Of a stretch of DNA of 64,000 bases, positions 17,858 through 21,983 are shown piece by piece. The stretch comes from a virus. Positions within the stretch are counted from its first letter, which is position 1; each line of letters starts with the position of its first letter. The notes beneath the pieces were generated by a model. That model worked only from the letters and a program-made list of their open reading frames with translations. It searched no databases and had not been told where the DNA came from. Made by a program: the position numbers and the translations under genes. The stretch is taken from the IMG/VR virus record IMGVR_UViG_3300002835_000024, one strand, 5' to 3'.

Positions 17858-17920
17858 GCTTCCATCTGACCCCAGTGGAAACCCACTGGGGTACAGGCGT
17901 AGTTGAAATGGAGAAAATGA

Positions 17921-18166
17921 ATGCAAACCGAAACGTCCAACGTAGAAGTCTTCGCTCTTATTGCAAGGCTTGAATGGAACGATTTCGAAGACTCTGACTA
18001 TCAGTCTTTCTCTGGCGTAATAAGCAAAACGCCTCTGATTGCTGAAGATGAAGAGCTTCAACTCATCTATGTCCTAGATGATCAGGTTCTGCAGGTGCTC
18101 GACTCCCGTGGTAATGTGAAGAAAATATACACTCTTCGCGCCACTGAAGCGATCAGAGCTCTGTAA
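17921..18166 (+). CDS. Hypothetical early protein
   Basis: Follows hairpin copy 1 and GGAG RBS. Confidence 0.7.
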   Translation: MQTETSNVEVFALIARLEWNDFEDSDYQSFSGVISKTPLIAEDEELQLIYVLDDQVLQVLDSRGNVKKIYTLRATEAIRAL

Positions 18167-18223
18167 TCTGCCTACCCCTACGCAAAAGCGTGGGGGTTTT
18201 GGCGTGTCTAATGGAGAAAAACT

Positions 18224-18448
18224 ATGTTTTCTAACTGGAAATACCGTGTATATGATACGGTAGAAAAGAAATATGCCATCAAGAAACGTTATGCTTCTGA
18301 TGCAGAAGCAATGGTCGCTGTAGAGCGTCTAAGACGTAGGCATAAAGACAGTCCCTTTGGCAGGTTCATGGTTCTTGTCGATCCTGGTATAAAGAAAAAA
18401 CGCCATAGTGACTATTATCAATCCCGAATCGTCTATGTCGGTGATTGA
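18224..18448 (+). CDS. Hypothetical early protein
   Basis: Follows hairpin copy 2 and GGAG RBS. Confidence 0.7.
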   Translation: MFSNWKYRVYDTVEKKYAIKKRYASDAEAMVAVERLRRRHKDSPFGRFMVLVDPGIKKKRHSDYYQSRIVYVGD

Positions 18449-18503
18449 TTCCTTACCCCAGCGAAAACTCGCTGGGGTCAAGGCGTAGTTAGGAGTGTGT
18501 AAC

Positions 18504-18605
18504 ATGAGAAATATAAACTGGGGTTTCATTTTCGGAATGCTATTCTGTGTGGCCTTTTGGCTATCAGTTATTGTTTCGATCAACATCTTGATTCAAGGAA
18601 ACTAA
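18504..18605 (+). CDS. Small single-TM protein
   Basis: MRNINWGFIFGMLFCVAFWLSVIVSINILIQGN after hairpin copy 3 and AGGAG. Confidence 0.55.
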   Translation: MRNINWGFIFGMLFCVAFWLSVIVSINILIQGN

Positions 18606-18607
18606 TT

Positions 18608-18829
18608 ATGGAAACCTTTACCGTAGACAACGCTGCTATGGGTCGAGCCAAGGTCTGGGAATACAAACAGGAAGAAACTGTTCGTGAAATTCCCTGCCAG
18701 GGCTGTAAATTCATTGTTCGATGCACTGATTCGCTCACTGATTGCTTCGCCTTCAGGCGTTGGACTCATAGTGGTAACTACAGCGATCGCCAGATCAACC
18801 ATCTGGTTCGTCCTTTTGAAACGGAGTAA
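18608..18829 (+). CDS. Cys-rich hypothetical protein
   Basis: AAGGAA RBS; PCQGC...C...C. Confidence 0.65.
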   Translation: METFTVDNAAMGRAKVWEYKQEETVREIPCQGCKFIVRCTDSLTDCFAFRRWTHSGNYSDRQINHLVRPFETE

Positions 18830-18832
18830 ATT

Positions 18833-19096
18833 ATGATCAATCGCAAACTCAAACTCATCGAAGAAAAAGGATCTATCAATACTCTTCGATTCGTCAACGA
18901 GATGACAAAACTTCCAGTTGGAATCATCTATAAGACGAGAGACGAAAAAGGAATACTCTGGCAAGTTGAAGCCTTTGATGACTTCAACGGCAAGACCAAG
19001 GGATTCCGAAGCTTGGAAGCGGCAAGATATTACTTGTGCGCTTTCGCCGTTGAGGCTTGGGAAGAAGAAGTCGCAGAGATGCGATTTGCGAGTTAA
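18833..19096 (+). CDS. Hypothetical early protein
   Basis: GGAG RBS; stop just before hairpin copy 4. Confidence 0.7.
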   Translation: MINRKLKLIEEKGSINTLRFVNEMTKLPVGIIYKTRDEKGILWQVEAFDDFNGKTKGFRSLEAARYYLCAFAVEAWEEEVAEMRFAS

Positions 19097-19161
19097 ACTC
19101 CTCACCCCACTGGAAACCCAGTGGGGTCGAGGCGTAGCTAAAGCATGTATGGAGAAAAATA

Positions 19162-19539
19162 ATGCTTCCTGCTGGTGAATACTATATCGGTGATCTTTGC
19201 TACGTCATTGATGACGAGAATTGGGATAACTTCTGTGCAATGACTTGTTTCGGGAACCATGTTCTCGATGGCGAGTTTAATTTCCAGGGTACTGCTATCG
19301 CTTGCTACGGAACTATGTACGGCGATGGTTGCTACAGAGATCAAACGGGCCACGAATATCCTGTGGATGCTGGTTTGATTGGTTGTATCCTTCTGAGCGA
19401 AATCACCAAACCAGAAGGTGTCGAACATGGAAGGGTTGTCACTTTTGAGAGATCTTTCAGAACGTTCAGTTATAGAGGCGTCATCGGGTTCGATAACGTC
19501 CAAATCGACACCAGCGATAACGAAAAAGACGAATATTAA
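19162..19539 (+). CDS. Conserved hypothetical phage protein
   Basis: YYIGDLCYV...T.YGDG.Y...VDAGLIG motif. Confidence 0.8.
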   Translation: MLPAGEYYIGDLCYVIDDENWDNFCAMTCFGNHVLDGEFNFQGTAIACYGTMYGDGCYRDQTGHEYPVDAGLIGCILLSEITKPEGVEHGRVVTFERSFRTFSYRGVIGFDNVQIDTSDNEKDEY

Positions 19540-19561
19540 CGAAAAATATTCGTCCCTGCAG

Positions 19562-19729
19562 AAAAAACCTAATAAAATCAGTCCAACATTACGAAGATTT
19601 AATGTTGGAGGGGTTTACTTCCTCGTTCGATAGGGTAGAATGGTTGTGTTCTGGAAGGGTTCAGTGACTATCGAGACCTGCCTTCGGGCACTCCCAGTTC
19701 CACTGTTTGACATTGTAGAGAGACTGACG
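19562..19729 (+). promoter_or_regulatory. Early promoter/leader module, copy 2
   Basis: Same blocks as 16559-16746, including CAACATTA-N8-TAATGTTG, TTTACT-N16-TAGAAT and CTGTTTGACATTGT. Confidence 0.8.
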
Positions 19730-19992: not shown

Positions 19993-20053
19993 TTACCCGC
20001 CCACCCCACTGGAAACCCAGTGGGGTCGAGGCGTAGTTAGAATGGAGAAACTT

Positions 20054-20230
20054 ATGTCTAAGATGGCTATCTTCTTTCAAGAAACTGGTGAAGAAGGAAT
20101 CATCCACTATAATGATGGGGAAACCCTAGAACAGCTTCTAGAGCGTTCTCCCCCTGAGTGGCGATATCGCTACACAGAAACTCCTCGTCGTTATCAGTAC
20201 GATCCTGATCGTGATGATTACGATTACTGA
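20054..20230 (+). CDS. Small hypothetical protein
   Basis: GGAG RBS after hairpin copy 6. Confidence 0.65.
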   Translation: MSKMAIFFQETGEEGIIHYNDGETLEQLLERSPPEWRYRYTETPRRYQYDPDRDDYDY

Positions 20231-20301
20231 TCGACCTCACCCCAGTGGAAACCCACTGGGGTAGAGGCGTAGCTGAATTAGCAGCAAATGGAGAATATTG
20301 A

Positions 20302-20532
20302 ATGGCTAAGTCCCGTGTCCAACGCATCCGCAGCCTTGCTAACGCTTTCGAGCGTATCACTCGCGGTGTGATCGTTACGGATAATCTCCTCAATACCTAC
20401 TTCGATAAGAAAGCTGATGAGATAGAGGCGTTCAACGCCGAGCTCACTGATGTTCTTACTACGAAAGAGGAGCTCGTCGAGCCTACCGAAACGGTAGTTC
20501 GCGCAGCGAAACGACGTAAGAAAAGGTCGTAA
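20302..20532 (+). CDS. Hypothetical early protein
   Basis: After hairpin copy 7; basic C-terminus. Confidence 0.7.
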   Translation: MAKSRVQRIRSLANAFERITRGVIVTDNLLNTYFDKKADEIEAFNAELTDVLTTKEELVEPTETVVRAAKRRKKRS

Positions 20533-20593
20533 CGCCCAACACCCCAGCAGAAACCTGCTGGGGTAGAGGCGTAGTTGAAAGAAGGAAATCGAT

Positions 20594-20812
20594 ATGACCT
20601 GTCTTAAAACTATCTGCGAACTCGCCGCCAAAGTTGGTGTCGATTTAACTGGTAAGCTGACTCGTTCAGAAATGAGACGAGTGATATGGGATCATTATGA
20701 CGAGAAGCATCGCGAAGCTTATGCTGCTGGTCTGCGTGATCTAATATGGATAACTCAAGCTGATATTGATCTGCTTGATTCTTTAGAAATTAGCAGCTTC
20801 AGAAAGCCTTAA
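20594..20812 (+). CDS. Hypothetical early protein
   Basis: After hairpin copy 8; AAGGA RBS. Confidence 0.7.
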   Translation: MTCLKTICELAAKVGVDLTGKLTRSEMRRVIWDHYDEKHREAYAAGLRDLIWITQADIDLLDSLEISSFRKP

Positions 20813-20821
20813 TTTCCTTGA

Positions 20822-20909
20822 GCGGGCGTGGCGAAATTGGTAGACGCACCAGACTTAAAATCTGTTAGGCCGTAGGCCTGTGTCGGTTCGAGTCCGATCG
20901 CCCGCACCA
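20822..20909 (+). tRNA. tRNA-Leu(TAA)
   Basis: GCGGGCG/CGCCCGC, CTTAAAA loop, long variable arm, CCA. Confidence 0.96.
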
Positions 20910-20914
20910 ATTAA

Positions 20915-20989
20915 GGTCCCTTCGTCTATCGGTTAGGACGCTAGGTTTTCAACCTAGAAAGACGGGTTCGACTCCCGTAGGGACTACCA
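20915..20989 (+). tRNA. tRNA-Glu(TTC)
   Basis: GGTCCCT/AGGGACT, CTAGG-TTTTCAA-CCTAG, GGTTCGACTCC, CCA. Confidence 0.96.
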
Positions 20990-21056
20990 ATCACATAACC
21001 TTCGCCCCAGCGAAAACTCGCTGGGGTAGAGGCGTAGCTAGAATGGAGAAAAACAT

Positions 21057-21917
21057 ATGCTACTTCGAATATTCGGAGTTGTTCTGATCGTTGCTGGTTT
21101 CGGTCTGGCAGCGATATCTGGCTATCTGGCGTATTTCGGTTTTGAGCACACCATCAAGCTGCCATTTATCGGTATGATTGGTCCCTTCGTGGCCCTTTCG
21201 CTGGCTTCTCTCGGCGTTGCCGTCGAGGTTGCCTTTCGTCGCCGTAAGTGGTTGGCCTTCGTGCCCCTGTTCGCTCTGATGGTTGTTGCTGGTTTGATCG
21301 ATAAGAATGGTGGCGAGATCGCCCTCAAGAATATCGTCAACGACGCGACCCAAGGTGACTCTGACCGTAATACTGCCTATAGTACAGCTCTTTCTACCAA
21401 AGCCGATCTTGAGAAACAGATCGCAGACCTTGAGGCTGAATACAAGGTTATGACTGGTAGCGATATCGCTGCCGCCCAGGAAGTCCTGTTGGCGCGTGGT
21501 CTGTATGTTGATGCGGCTGGAAATCCGATGCCCATCGACGGAAAGCGTGGCCCCTTTACGTTGAAAGCTATGGCTGATCGTGGAAAGGCTATCACTGCGG
21601 AACTGGGTAATGTCCGTAGTGATCTTAAGAGTGCGACGGCAACGGTCGCCTCTGGTGCTGCAGTTACTGAAGCACCCTTTACCCTCCACCAAGCAGAGCT
21701 CTATGCTCTGATGATCACAGTCATGTCTGTGCTCTTTGCGATGGCTGGTTCTTTCGTTTACGGCGGTTTCGGCGACGATGAGCCGAATATCGATGAAGAA
21801 ATCGAGCAGGTCGAAGAAATTGCTTCCAAGATGGAAAACAATATCGTTCGCCTTGCAGAGCACTTCGGTGCCTTCGAATTCGACGATGAGCCTGCAGCCA
21901 AGCGCAAGCGTGGATAA
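21057..21917 (+). CDS. Multi-pass membrane protein with coiled coil and putative peptidoglycan-binding motif
   Basis: Three N-terminal TMs, AQEVLLARGLY...IDGKRGPFTLKAM, C-terminal TM. Confidence 0.65.
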   Translation: MLLRIFGVVLIVAGFGLAAISGYLAYFGFEHTIKLPFIGMIGPFVALSLASLGVAVEVAFRRRKWLAFVPLFALMVVAGLIDKNGGEIALKNIVNDATQGDSDRNTAYSTALSTKADLEKQIADLEAEYKVMTGSDIAAAQEVLLARGLYVDAAGNPMPIDGKRGPFTLKAMADRGKAITAELGNVRSDLKSATATVASGAAVTEAPFTLHQAELYALMITVMSVLFAMAGSFVYGGFGDDEPNIDEEIEQVEEIASKMENNIVRLAEHFGAFEFDDEPAAKRKRG

Positions 21918-21983
21918 TCGACCCGTAAGGGTGGCACTACCTCTACCCCTGCTCAAACGAGTGGGGGTAGAGTCGTAGTTAGA

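Follow-up and report, generated by a model that had tools for sequence, protein, structure and literature searches.

The region described here forms part of a 64-kb window (the whole stretch of viral DNA that was analysed), and the features listed below all lie on its + strand. It opens with the head of a first early transcription unit (16581-16790), recognised from the repeat families D5/D6/D11/D13 and a promoter scan, in which an AT-rich stem-loop (16581-16605) and a sigma-70-like promoter (TTTACT-N16-TAGAAT, 16612-16639) are followed by a conserved leader of ~120 nt, kept in the relatives L079, L080 and L082. The last gene before the array (17573-17857) encodes 94 residues with an ArdC N-terminal-like anti-restriction domain (Pfam PF08401, E=1.1e-18; phrog_7245). 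Ten hairpin elements follow, placed in register by an alignment of the ten copies (A1) and scored in bits with a covariance model. Copy 1 (17865-17904, 66.3 bits), with a type A tail, precedes an 81-aa ORFan (17921-18166), and copy 2 (18170-18209, 53.3 bits), with a type B tail (a 4-U run and then GGCGUGUC), precedes a 74-aa ORF (18224-18448). Copy 3 (18451-18490, 64.5 bits) heads three abutting ORFs (18504-18605, 18608-18829 and 18833-19096), between which the ORF map leaves no element, and copy 4 (19100-19139, 70.4 bits) heads a 125-aa ORF (19162-19539, phrog_20074). The head of a second early unit comes next (19584-19759), again with an AT-rich stem-loop (19584-19608), a TTTACT-N16-TAGAAT promoter (19614-19641) and a leader (~19648-19759); the stretch from the preceding gene to this promoter contains no CCCC element. 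Directly 3' of the leader is copy 5 (19760-19799, 67.1 bits), followed by a 53-aa ORF (19831-19992), copy 6 (19999-20038, 66.4 bits) with a 58-aa ORF (20054-20230), copy 7 (20235-20274, 70.3 bits) with a 76-aa ORF (20302-20532) and copy 8 (20537-20576, 63.7 bits) with a 72-aa ORF (20594-20812). Genes for tRNA-Leu(UAA) and tRNA-Glu(UUC) (20822-20989; ARAGORN, Rfam) are embedded in the array, and copy 9 (21000-21039, 66.8 bits) starts 10 nt 3' of the latter, ahead of a 286-aa ORF (21057-21917) from a cassette family common to relatives. Copy 10 (21941-21980, 57.2 bits), which folds into a continuous stem of 18-19 bp, precedes two ORFs (21996-22313 and 22325-22510), after which a canonical intrinsic terminator (10-bp stem and ~9 U) closes the unit and a TTGACT-N17-TATAAT promoter follows (22514-22580).

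The element, ~40 nt long, has the layout ACCCC-N5-AAAC-N5'-GGGGU, then a short lower stem and a GGCGUAG tail. Its upper stem comprises 10 bp, capped by an A-rich tetraloop and resting on an ACCCC/GGGGU foot that is invariant; beneath it, a bulge or small internal loop leads to the lower stem, in which the 5' flank pairs with the conserved tail, GGCGU(AG/GU). Across the whole 64-kb window, the ten copies are all found on the + strand within 17865-21980. The 15-mer of the 3' arm (up to three mismatches) gives 10 matches against 0.35 expected, nine of them element copies, and the more diverged copy 2 was recovered by a regular expression and by the covariance model. With filters off, this model scores the ten copies at 53-70 bits and finds no other + strand site of at least 11 bits in the window, while scores on the - strand do not exceed 22 bits. 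The first-pass annotation had reported ten intergenic copies with covarying arm pairs, imperfect pairs that are G.U on the + strand, and copies 5 and 9 lying behind a promoter-leader and tRNA-Glu, all of which was borne out here. It had not recognised the motif, and no Rfam family matches the element either.

Using the covariance model, further copies were found (~57 distinct), all of them in arrays that occupy this same variable region in contigs of related T4-like phages from freshwater; bacterial genomes contain no copies. In the 57 distinct copies, the eight inner pairs contain no unpaired cell, compensatory changes occur at 10 of 14 pairs, covariation scores 0.446 where shuffles give 0.175, and 90% of cells are paired, compared with 37-51% when the partner is slid. 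The inner-stem wobbles are 29 G.U and no A.C on the gene strand, and in every contig all copies are oriented as the genes. The structure of the element is thus selected and strand-specific, and the earlier proposal of a structured + strand signal is supported by both the covariation and the G.U-only wobbles; the G.U asymmetry fits a + strand ssDNA hairpin equally well.

The tail, previously described as conserved and unpaired, is indeed conserved, but on folding its CGUAG pairs in many copies with the 5' flank, upstream stop codon included. Type A copies reach a mean duplex of 17.7 bp, and type B copies only ~15 bp (some just 9-13 bp). Cognate flanks contribute -8.8 kcal/mol, versus -8.0 when swapped (of 200 permutations, none went as low as the cognate set) and -6.3 when shuffled. 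The purine-rich 3' strand of the lower stem reads as Shine-Dalgarno-like and is covered by a CCUC/CCUU strand. Some copies also carry TAGAAT, which resembles the -10 box of neighbouring early promoters and is not conserved.

The elements occur only inside units delimited by sigma-70-like promoters and canonical terminators, either after the conserved promoter-leader, between small ORFs or beside tRNAs (one lies 5 nt before a tRNA-Asp in the relative L072), and none is present at transcription-unit ends. In this uncultured phage and its relatives, they stand between almost all of the tiny early genes of one variable region. In 52 of 65 copies, CCCC begins 6-12 nt (mode 8) after the end of the stop codon; the Shine-Dalgarno sequence lies at +17 to +20 past the hairpin and the start codon at ~+26 to +47, and neither the true Shine-Dalgarno nor the start is ever within the hairpin. 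A ribosome-binding site (RBS) had been noted after every element; in relatives, some elements also directly precede a tRNA with no RBS. The assignment of the element to the downstream gene likewise stands in part: the tail and the translation-initiation region move with that gene, but the 5' flank, often including the stop codon, moves with the upstream one, and the element also flanks tRNAs.

The promoter scan found no sigma-70-like promoter overlapping any element, and there is too little space for one before the Shine-Dalgarno, in support of the earlier statement that the repeats contain no promoter. It is barely credible that the conserved 3' half instead serves a phage-modified or phage-encoded RNA polymerase as its promoter (perhaps an N4-like hairpin promoter). 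A conserved block of 15-25 nt does lie immediately 5' of each RBS, and TAGAAT would suggest a -10 box, but a start 7 nt past this hexamer would remove the Shine-Dalgarno, the hairpin-to-Shine-Dalgarno gap is only ~18 nt, and elements precede tRNAs and follow a leader already equipped with a promoter. Moreover, a duplex promoter does not explain the stem covariation, and the phage is T4-like, with ordinary early promoters. The elements were also rejected as members of the PeSL class of T4-type phages (Arbiol 2010, PMC2839356; Comeau 2014, PMC4122927) because they have no sigma-70 promoter. As the nearest analogy, which is how they had been proposed, PeSLs are nevertheless apt: they too are repeated intergenic modules in the hyperplastic region of a T4-like genome, whose G/C-tract stem-loop directly follows the upstream stop and whose 3' end carries a Shine-Dalgarno and start, and they flank small ORFans, with indels and replacements between relatives mapping to the modules. 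Unlike PeSLs, the elements have neither a -35/-10 promoter nor room for one, their stem polarity is CCCC...GGGG rather than GGGG...CCCC, and they possess a conserved 3' tail and lower stem. Since separate, true PeSL-like units (AT-rich stem-loop and TTTACT-N16-TAGAAT) exist in the same phage at 14825, 16581 and 19584, the hairpins represent a second, promoter-less class inside the units.

A rather unlikely alternative treats the elements as hairpins for leaky intrinsic termination, attenuation or pausing, i.e., the stem-loop half of a PeSL without its promoter, which would grade transcription along the array depending on how closely a ribosome follows. In its favour, the core forms a GC hairpin of terminator grade (-19 to -33 kcal/mol when folded with its flanks), the T5-like Salmonella phage Seabear has a near-identical core that carries the annotation of a bidirectional terminator, PeSL stem-loops have been shown to terminate (PMC2839356), and across the short, fixed stop-to-hairpin gap a ribosome terminating at the stop could keep the hairpin from forming. 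Additionally, a run of 3-4 U lies directly 3' of the stem in 24 of 66 copies, where some termination or pausing is possible. The remaining 42 (nine of the ten in the window) have at most one U, and no run exceeds 4 U, against at least 6-8 U in the genuine terminators of this phage; the earlier remark that there is no U-tract therefore holds for the window except for copy 2. Type A and type B tails also interchange at the same gene junction between relatives, the actual unit ends lack elements, and a terminator needs neither the conserved tail nor the co-adaptation of the lower stem. As there is no promoter between successive elements, 10-14 serial terminators would silence the distal genes. 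Rho-independent terminators and stabiliser hairpins of the REP/BIME type resemble the elements as GC-rich hairpins directly after a stop codon (with a core identical to that of an annotated terminator in T5-like phages in the former case, and in the latter with the relevant property that REPs stabilise upstream mRNA segments), but differ in that the U run here does not exceed 4 and is usually 1, the tail is conserved, and the elements are confined to one region and one orientation.

We tentatively favour, just short of calling it probable, a reading in which these hairpins, whose geometry is that of T7 RNase III sites, serve to process or stabilise RNA between cistrons and double as homologous crossover points. 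In T7, the sites R0.3, R0.5, R1, R1.1 and R1.3 likewise make up a family of hairpins, placed between the early cistrons of a transcript made by host RNAP; their stem tops vary, and the 3' tail or internal loop is conserved. When folded, all five have an upper stem of 9-13 bp, a conserved foot and a 3' tail, in a layout similar to that of the elements, and in R0.5 and R1 the stop codon precedes the stem by 8-14 nt and coincides with, or lies just 5' of, the lower stem, while ~28-36 nt separate the hairpin from the AUG. The elements differ from them in having no sequence similarity to them, in being shorter on average (15-18 bp) and far more numerous (10-14 per array), and in being candidate cleavage sites. 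The predicted ~15-bp type B duplexes (some 9-13 bp) are short for a classical RNase III substrate, which counts against the RNase III reading, and no RNase or RNA-binding gene was found among the ~70 window ORFs scanned.

The invariant CCCC/GGGG foot and AAAC loop go beyond what simple processing by RNase III or RNase E calls for and suggest a sequence-specific reader. Such a reader would be central if the hairpin were an operator on which a trans-acting phage or host protein recognises the ACCCC/GGGGU foot, the AAAC loop and the GGCGU tail, switching translation of the early set or coupling termination at the upstream stop to the next start. This is unlikely, even though these nucleotides are invariant beyond the need of pure structure, the spacing (stop, 8 nt, hairpin, ~18 nt, Shine-Dalgarno) is fixed and the Shine-Dalgarno-like strand is masked: elements are also found on either side of a tRNA and 3' of a leader, where adjoining translation is absent, the hairpin never holds the true initiation signals, and the window yielded no candidate for the binding protein. 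As a precedent, the portions of PMC12699233 that deal with cluster K mycobacteriophages (citing Pope 2011) describe conserved start-associated sequences (SAS) by the RBS of many genes, with a putative function, a subset of which (ESAS) is preceded by inverted repeats. According to the same portions, these have another sequence, occur in siphoviruses of Actinobacteria, have 17-nt ESAS arms with a variable spacer and an SAS that overlaps the RBS itself, and figure there without cassette shuffling.

Cassette order varies between related arrays and the breakpoints fall inside the elements, in agreement with the first-pass suggestion that these mark shuffling boundaries and that relatives would differ in gene order. 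The ends of blastn alignments cluster within ~50 nt of element centres, a count inflated by element-only short matches. Between L079 and L080, whose flanks are 96-98% identical, a one-gene insertion of 265 nt (in L080) is bounded by two elements with identical cores, resembling a duplicated site. Related phages have exchanged individual genes precisely at the hairpins. If cassette exchange were the selected function, the element would be a DNA-level recombination site, a + strand ssDNA hairpin read by a recombination protein (integron attC-like, or the "specific DNA-binding protein" type raised by the PeSL authors for the GGGG...CCCC stem, PMC2839356). In line with it, the elements are where single-gene cassettes change order, enter or drop out, ssDNA tolerates G.T wobbles and, as in attC, there is a one-sided bulged base and a fixed orientation; integrons likewise have one folded, strand-specific imperfect palindrome per cassette and arrays of small unrelated ORFs whose order varies among relatives. 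We nevertheless consider it distinctly improbable, as no integrase, HUH or other site-specific recombinase is present among the scanned ORFs, the R''/R' core sites of attC are absent, and the much shorter element is tightly fitted to the stop codon and RBS and confined inside transcription units, which favours an RNA role. Furthermore, crossovers occur at several element positions (the upper stem, between tail parts 1 and 2, and the flanks), a heterogeneity that indicates homology-driven rather than site-specific exchange.

We infer that the folded species would be RNA rather than ssDNA, that it would be endonucleolytically processed or stabilised, and which nuclease would act. Under the processing or stabilising reading, the hairpin most likely marks where a long early mRNA would be cut or stabilised. 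A host endoribonuclease, RNase III-like on the imperfect duplex of 15-20 bp or RNase E in the tail, would cut between the cistrons, leaving an exonuclease-blocking 3' hairpin on the mRNA, leader or tRNA precursor upstream and a standard 5' UTR on the downstream gene. The best explanation is that, in a clade of freshwater T4-like phages, the hairpins act in cis to punctuate the polycistronic early mRNAs of a single hyperplastic region located downstream of gp41, and their modular, mutually compatible sequences would offer the points where homologous recombination inserts, deletes and reorders single-gene cassettes.

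All ten intergenic copies of the hairpin reported in the first-pass annotation align without gaps (alignment A1), on the + strand, at 17865-17904, 18170-18209 (copy 2, which is diverged and was recovered by a regular expression), 18451-18490, 19100-19139, 19760-19799, 19999-20038, 20235-20274, 20537-20576, 21000-21039 and 21941-21980 (copies 1 to 10, respectively). A 15-mer covering the 3' arm and the tail, allowed up to three mismatches, matches the window ten times against 0.35 expected, and nine of these matches are listed copies. When a covariance model of the element (R1) was run with filters off across the whole window, the ten copies scored 53–70 bits and their reverse complements at most 22 bits, and no other site on the rest of the + strand of the 64 kb reached 11 bits; therefore, the element family is real and strand-specific, and it is restricted to a stretch of about 4 kb. 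The GC content of the element stretch is 45–50%, above the 39.7% of the window.

The upper stem is formed by nine base pairs (an invariant CCCC/GGGG foot and five covarying pairs) and carries an AAAC loop, which is AAAA in copy 2. Below it come an A-U pair, a one-nucleotide bulge on the 3' side and a lower stem of 3–5 bp (CCUC/GAGG, CCUU/AAGG, UCUG/CAGG and others), and the tail is CGUAGYU. The covariation described earlier for the arms is borne out, since among the window copies there are compensatory changes at six of the 14 pairs, with 93.6% of the cells paired, and this pairing drops to 34–49% of the cells when the 3' partner is slid by 1–3 columns. Both imperfect window arms use G·U on the + strand, as had been proposed. 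In a larger alignment including the relatives (A4, with 68 hits corresponding to 57 distinct rows), the eight inner pairs have zero unpaired cells, compensatory changes occur at 10 of the 14 pairs, the covariation score is 0.446 versus 0.175 in shuffles (none of 500 being as high) and the wobbles comprise 29 G·U or U·G and zero A·C; the pair counts of this alignment lean towards structure, because it was aligned to the model, and the ungapped A1 and the raw sequence listing agree with it on the pairing. On the gene strand, selection acts strongly on the hairpin structure itself, which a pure homology handle would not require.

The tail had been described as unpaired. The CGUAG sequence was confirmed, but folding the elements with their flanks brings the tail (GGCG, GUAG) into pairing with the 5' flank, and it is therefore not simply single-stranded. 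Most copies then form a longer imperfect duplex (19 bp in copy 10, 22 bp in copy 6), often with the upstream stop codon inside the pairing, and the bulge or loop lies 10–11 bp away from the tetraloop. Two tail variants exist: type A (as in copy 1), with U-(A/C)-(G/A)-AGG-CGUAG, which pairs with an upstream CCUY, and type B (as in copy 2), with UUUU or UUUC followed by (G/A)GCGUGUC. In the folds with flanks, the mean duplex length is 17.7 bp for type A (12–22) and 14.8 bp for type B (9–20). Hybrids of both types are present, and the two substitute for each other at the same junction between genes in different phages. With the cognate 5' flanks the core hairpin gains -8.8 kcal/mol, compared with -8.0 kcal/mol for flanks swapped between elements (none of 200 permutations being as low as the cognate value) and -6.3 kcal/mol for shuffled flanks. 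The lower stem thus displays modest co-adaptation within elements, and any 5' half is generally compatible with any 3' half, which makes the element design modular.

Outside the window, scanning with a degenerate pattern located the element in three related IMG/VR contigs, G001 (65 kb), G002 (30.5 kb) and G003 (15 kb), and in many freshwater metagenome contigs (Ga01813xx, Ga0209550, Ga0315905). According to R1, each of the three holds about 11–17 copies, on one strand and with each array within 4–5.5 kb, and the short metagenome contigs hold 4–14 (e.g. 11 in the 3,974-bp L080). The motif, which the first-pass annotation did not recognise, is absent from Rfam 15: nothing overlaps the window elements at E-values up to 5, and only tRNA and tmRNA reach the gathering score in the window. 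An exact 15-mer scan of IMG/VR gave 32 single hits, which were rejected (all lack the hairpin, and roughly half fall within a single conserved coding sequence), and the degenerate pattern gave five single hits in 185,579 bacterial and archaeal species genomes, none belonging to the family. Three model hits of 29.9 bits (L096, one of those five, and the metagenome records L084 and L089) correspond to one ordinary enterobacterial terminator. When the 4.9-kb array region was compared by blastn with 50,697 phage records, the tRNAs alone matched.

Sigma-70-like promoters (16612, 19614) and a canonical terminator (22514) enclose the elements, no promoter is found in between, and the elements hence sit on a predicted early transcript. 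Two near-identical unit heads are found on the + strand at 16581-16790 and 19584-19759, each consisting of an AT-rich stem-loop, TTTACT-N16-TAGAAT and a leader of about 120 nt, and the same head is conserved in the related contigs L079, L080 and L082. Both heads match the architecture of PeSLs (the promoter-early stem-loop cassettes of T4-type phages) as defined in PMC4122927 and PMC2839356. Unlike these promoter-bearing heads, the CCCC hairpins occur only inside units. Copy 5 directly follows the leader and copy 9 lies 10 nt past tRNA-Glu, as stated before, and the other elements stand between ORFs of the unit; in the related L072, one element is 5 nt before tRNA-Asp and one precedes a conserved non-coding stretch. 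No element was found in the interval that separates a unit's last gene from the next promoter, or at the terminator. Among 66 distinct copies, a stop codon (often part of a conserved 5' box, TAG-CCUACUUA) ends 6–12 nt (mode 8) before CCCC in 52 of 65, an SD-like motif starts at +17 to +20 after GGGG and start codons lie at about +26 to +47. All ten element-to-ATG intervals are free of sites in the promoter scan, which agrees with the earlier claim, and the approximately 18 nt from hairpin to SD leave no room for a promoter in the element; that the elements act as phage-specific promoters is very improbable.

The location inside units, the fixed stop-hairpin-SD geometry and the adjacency to tRNAs and leader, together with the lack of a promoter or U tract, point to a post-transcriptional punctuation signal. 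We tentatively rank first, as the most probable single explanation, that the elements are processing and 3'-end stabilisation hairpins: by analogy with known sites, endoribonucleolytic cleavage would take place at the elements, leaving stabilised 3' ends upstream, and recombination would be a secondary consequence of the modular repeats. The same hairpins could instead cause leaky termination or pausing, which we consider unlikely. Searched singly by blastn against the phage records, the elements match only a core of 24–27 nt in T5-like phages, nearly identical (one mismatch) to the commonest core among the elements, which in Salmonella phage Seabear (L101, 82794-82815) is an annotated bidirectional terminator between convergent genes; this match is probably convergence or coincidence, and it shows the element core to be terminator-grade. 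The U-tract, previously said to be missing, is indeed reduced to a leading run of 0–1 U in 42 of the 66 distinct copies, but reaches 3–4 (the maximum being 4) in the other 24, whereas an intrinsic terminator has a U-rich tract (about 6–8 nt) directly after its GC-rich hairpin and the four clear + strand terminators of this phage are 6–8 bp stems followed by at least 6–8 U.

Several additional features were observed around the units. The AT-rich stem-loop (AACATTA...TAATGTT) stands directly 5' of a sigma-70-like promoter in three PeSL-like units, at 14825-14873, 16581-16639 and 19584-19641, the first of these (about 14825-14873, with TTGATA-N17-TATAAA) having been found by eye and being absent from the promoter-scan list. 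The leader, conserved at about 75–80% between the two window copies and in L079, L080 and L082, has a covarying hairpin at its end, with a foot that is similar to the CCCC elements' lower stem; the consensus fold of the leader comprises four sequences and only two compensatory pairs, too few for us to claim either a leader structure or an antitermination role. In cassette families 1 and 2, a second, gene-specific small hairpin is located between the tail of the element and the SD (window 19800-19822 and 20272-20290; L079, about 195-215; L072, about 8225-8250), maintained by compensatory changes across relatives (e.g. GCUGAC/GUCAGC versus CCUGGC/GCCAGG). The extended RBS word ATGGAGAA has 15 + strand sites in the window (e.g. 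15408, 22313, 29858, 32555 and 48752) and zero on the - strand; seven of the 15 come directly after hairpin elements, and an eighth site (22313) stands in front of the last ORF in the array's unit. In L072, a second tRNA-like sequence (11340-11495), with a long extra arm and no ARAGORN call, follows the tRNA-Asp of G001, and a conserved non-coding stretch of about 100 nt comes after the last element (L072 11548-11650; L079 2755-2850), followed in L079 by a canonical terminator and a promoter.

When the ORFs between elements were clustered into numbered cassette families, the arrays were seen to share a cassette pool and to arrange it differently, with order changes of the kind proposed earlier. 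With a dot standing for each element, the window reads 15·16 and leader·1·x·2·3·tRNAs·0, and the compared contigs read 16·15 (L076, L086), leader·2·1·31·0 (L079), 4·3...2·1·0·14·6·7 (L073), 3·4 (L076), and 3·4 and leader·14·2·1 (L080). The ends of inter-array blastn alignments cluster within about 50 nt of the element centres, a count inflated by short element-only matches. L079 and L080, whose flanks are 96–98% identical, differ by a 265-nt one-gene insertion (family 14), and the two elements bounding it in L080 have identical cores. As to arms, L080 has one pair of neighbouring elements in which they are identical. The element had been assigned to the downstream gene, and this holds for the distal tail and the translation-initiation region; the 5' flank and the stop box, on the other hand, go with the upstream gene, and the tail halves are able to recombine independently of each other. 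Since these parts travel separately, crossovers are spread over several points in the element. Short homologies suffice for T4-type recombination (PMC2839356), and the sequence patterns fit a cassette exchange that would be driven by homology and not by a site-specific enzyme. That the folded element is itself a site for recombination on single-stranded DNA, as its hairpin and the shuffled cassettes might suggest, is improbable, given the heterogeneous crossover points and since no integrase or HUH enzyme was found in the window.

The source of this DNA is an uncultured T4-like myovirus. The window encodes a gp43-type PolB (48% identical to cyanomyovirus gp43), UvsX, a gp41-type helicase, a gp61-like primase, T4 RNase H, gp59 and gp32, as well as PhoH, an ADP-ribosyltransferase, two GIY-YIG endonucleases, a class II-like RNR, five tRNAs and a permuted alpha-type tmRNA, whose tag type hints at an alphaproteobacterial host. 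The array sits in a variable region downstream of uvsX-gp41, and its ORFs are ORFans except for two, namely an ArdC-N anti-restriction domain just before copy 1 and one ORF matching a PHROG of unknown function. Elsewhere in the window, the tmRNA (tag ANDNEVAFETRLAA, 55017-55420) adjoins a full TonB-dependent receptor gene (55678-57951). At 16878-17558, a tRNA-like 5' fragment precedes a GIY-YIG homing-endonuclease ORF (16954-17457), and this ORF overlaps an intact tRNA-Met(CAU) (17435-17511), an arrangement suggestive of an endonuclease cassette that has entered a tRNA gene or landed next to one. A methyltransferase gene (24679-25287) is flanked by a perfect direct repeat of 40 bp (24595-24634, 25307-25346), which looks like a recent duplication or insertion joint. 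A 43-nt repeat (12542-12584 and 12815-12857, 95% identical) encodes the same acidic C-terminal tail on UvsX (11507-12580) and on the adjacent 90-aa ORF (12581-12853), and a long run of degenerate coding repeats of 12–42 nt (42727-43284) within the ORF 42484-43404 encodes a highly repetitive, acidic, V/E/K/P-rich protein.

Compared with known systems, the element is not an attC site, a canonical terminator or a REP. Its 5' flank has the consensus stop-CC(Y)(M)(Y)UUA, which contains no RYYYAAC, and attC-type RYYYAAC/GTTRRRY core sites, which pair at the foot, were not found. Integrons carry a tyrosine-recombinase integrase with attI adjacent to the array; in the roughly 70 window ORFs searched against Pfam or PHROGs, no integrase domain was found, nor were RNase III or any obvious RNA-binding regulator. 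REP/BIME sequences are dispersed genome-wide in both orientations in a bacterial chromosome, whereas the element copies share one orientation and one 4-kb region per contig, and the family was not found in the species genomes. PeSLs had been named as the nearest analogy, and layout and shuffling are shared: the stem-loop lies just past the upstream gene, the SD and ATG of the next gene are at its 3' end, the region is hyperplastic, and where related phages differ by indels, replacements or reordering, the changes map to the elements. Nevertheless, the element is not a PeSL, because no sigma-70-like early promoter (-35, about 17 nt, -10) lies between stem-loop and SD. T7-type RNase III sites are imperfect duplexes spanning roughly two turns of the helix, interrupted by an internal loop or a bulge close to where cleavage occurs. 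Like these sites, the elements are intercistronic in a polycistronic early transcript made by host RNA polymerase (predicted here). The five T7 early RNase III regions, when folded, display a conserved foot, a variable upper stem of 9–13 bp and a conserved 3' tail or internal loop, and in R0.5 and R1 a stop codon stands 8–14 nt 5' of the stem, with about 28–36 nt from hairpin to AUG. By analogy, the elements would work most like T7 RNase III sites and the stem-loop/linker part of PeSLs; the SAS/ESAS motifs of cluster K mycobacteriophages, likewise unexplained, offer another parallel.

The invariance of foot, loop and tail is a hint that the element has a specific reader. That the elements are protein operators for translation or coupling is less likely than termination. 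We regard as improbable a dedicated protein that would read the ACCCC/GGGGU foot, the AAAC loop and the GGCGU tail. This reading has two versions: in a programmed system, one phage or host endoribonuclease may dice the mRNA so that all early cistrons and tRNAs are freed from one shared precursor, loosely like Cas6 in CRISPR systems, or a lytic phage may possess an integrase-free, integron-like system of cassette capture acting on folded single-stranded DNA.

This is a well-populated family of structured elements (about 57 distinct copies, with clean covariation), new relative to Rfam 15, which in an uncultured freshwater T4-like phage clade organises the most variable gene region, one of anti-defence type. 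Promoters and hairpin linkers, whose roles are fused in PeSLs, are physically distinct here, so that the hairpin alone becomes testable as sufficient for cassette shuffling and cistron insulation. In metagenomic phage contigs, the family is also a practical marker for finding hyperplastic early regions and the borders of cassettes. If there is a specific reader, it would represent a new RNA- or ssDNA-recognition system; if the elements are processing sites, they would provide a compact, modular intercistronic part and would mean that RNase III punctuation of early mRNA in the T7 style extends to T4-like phages.
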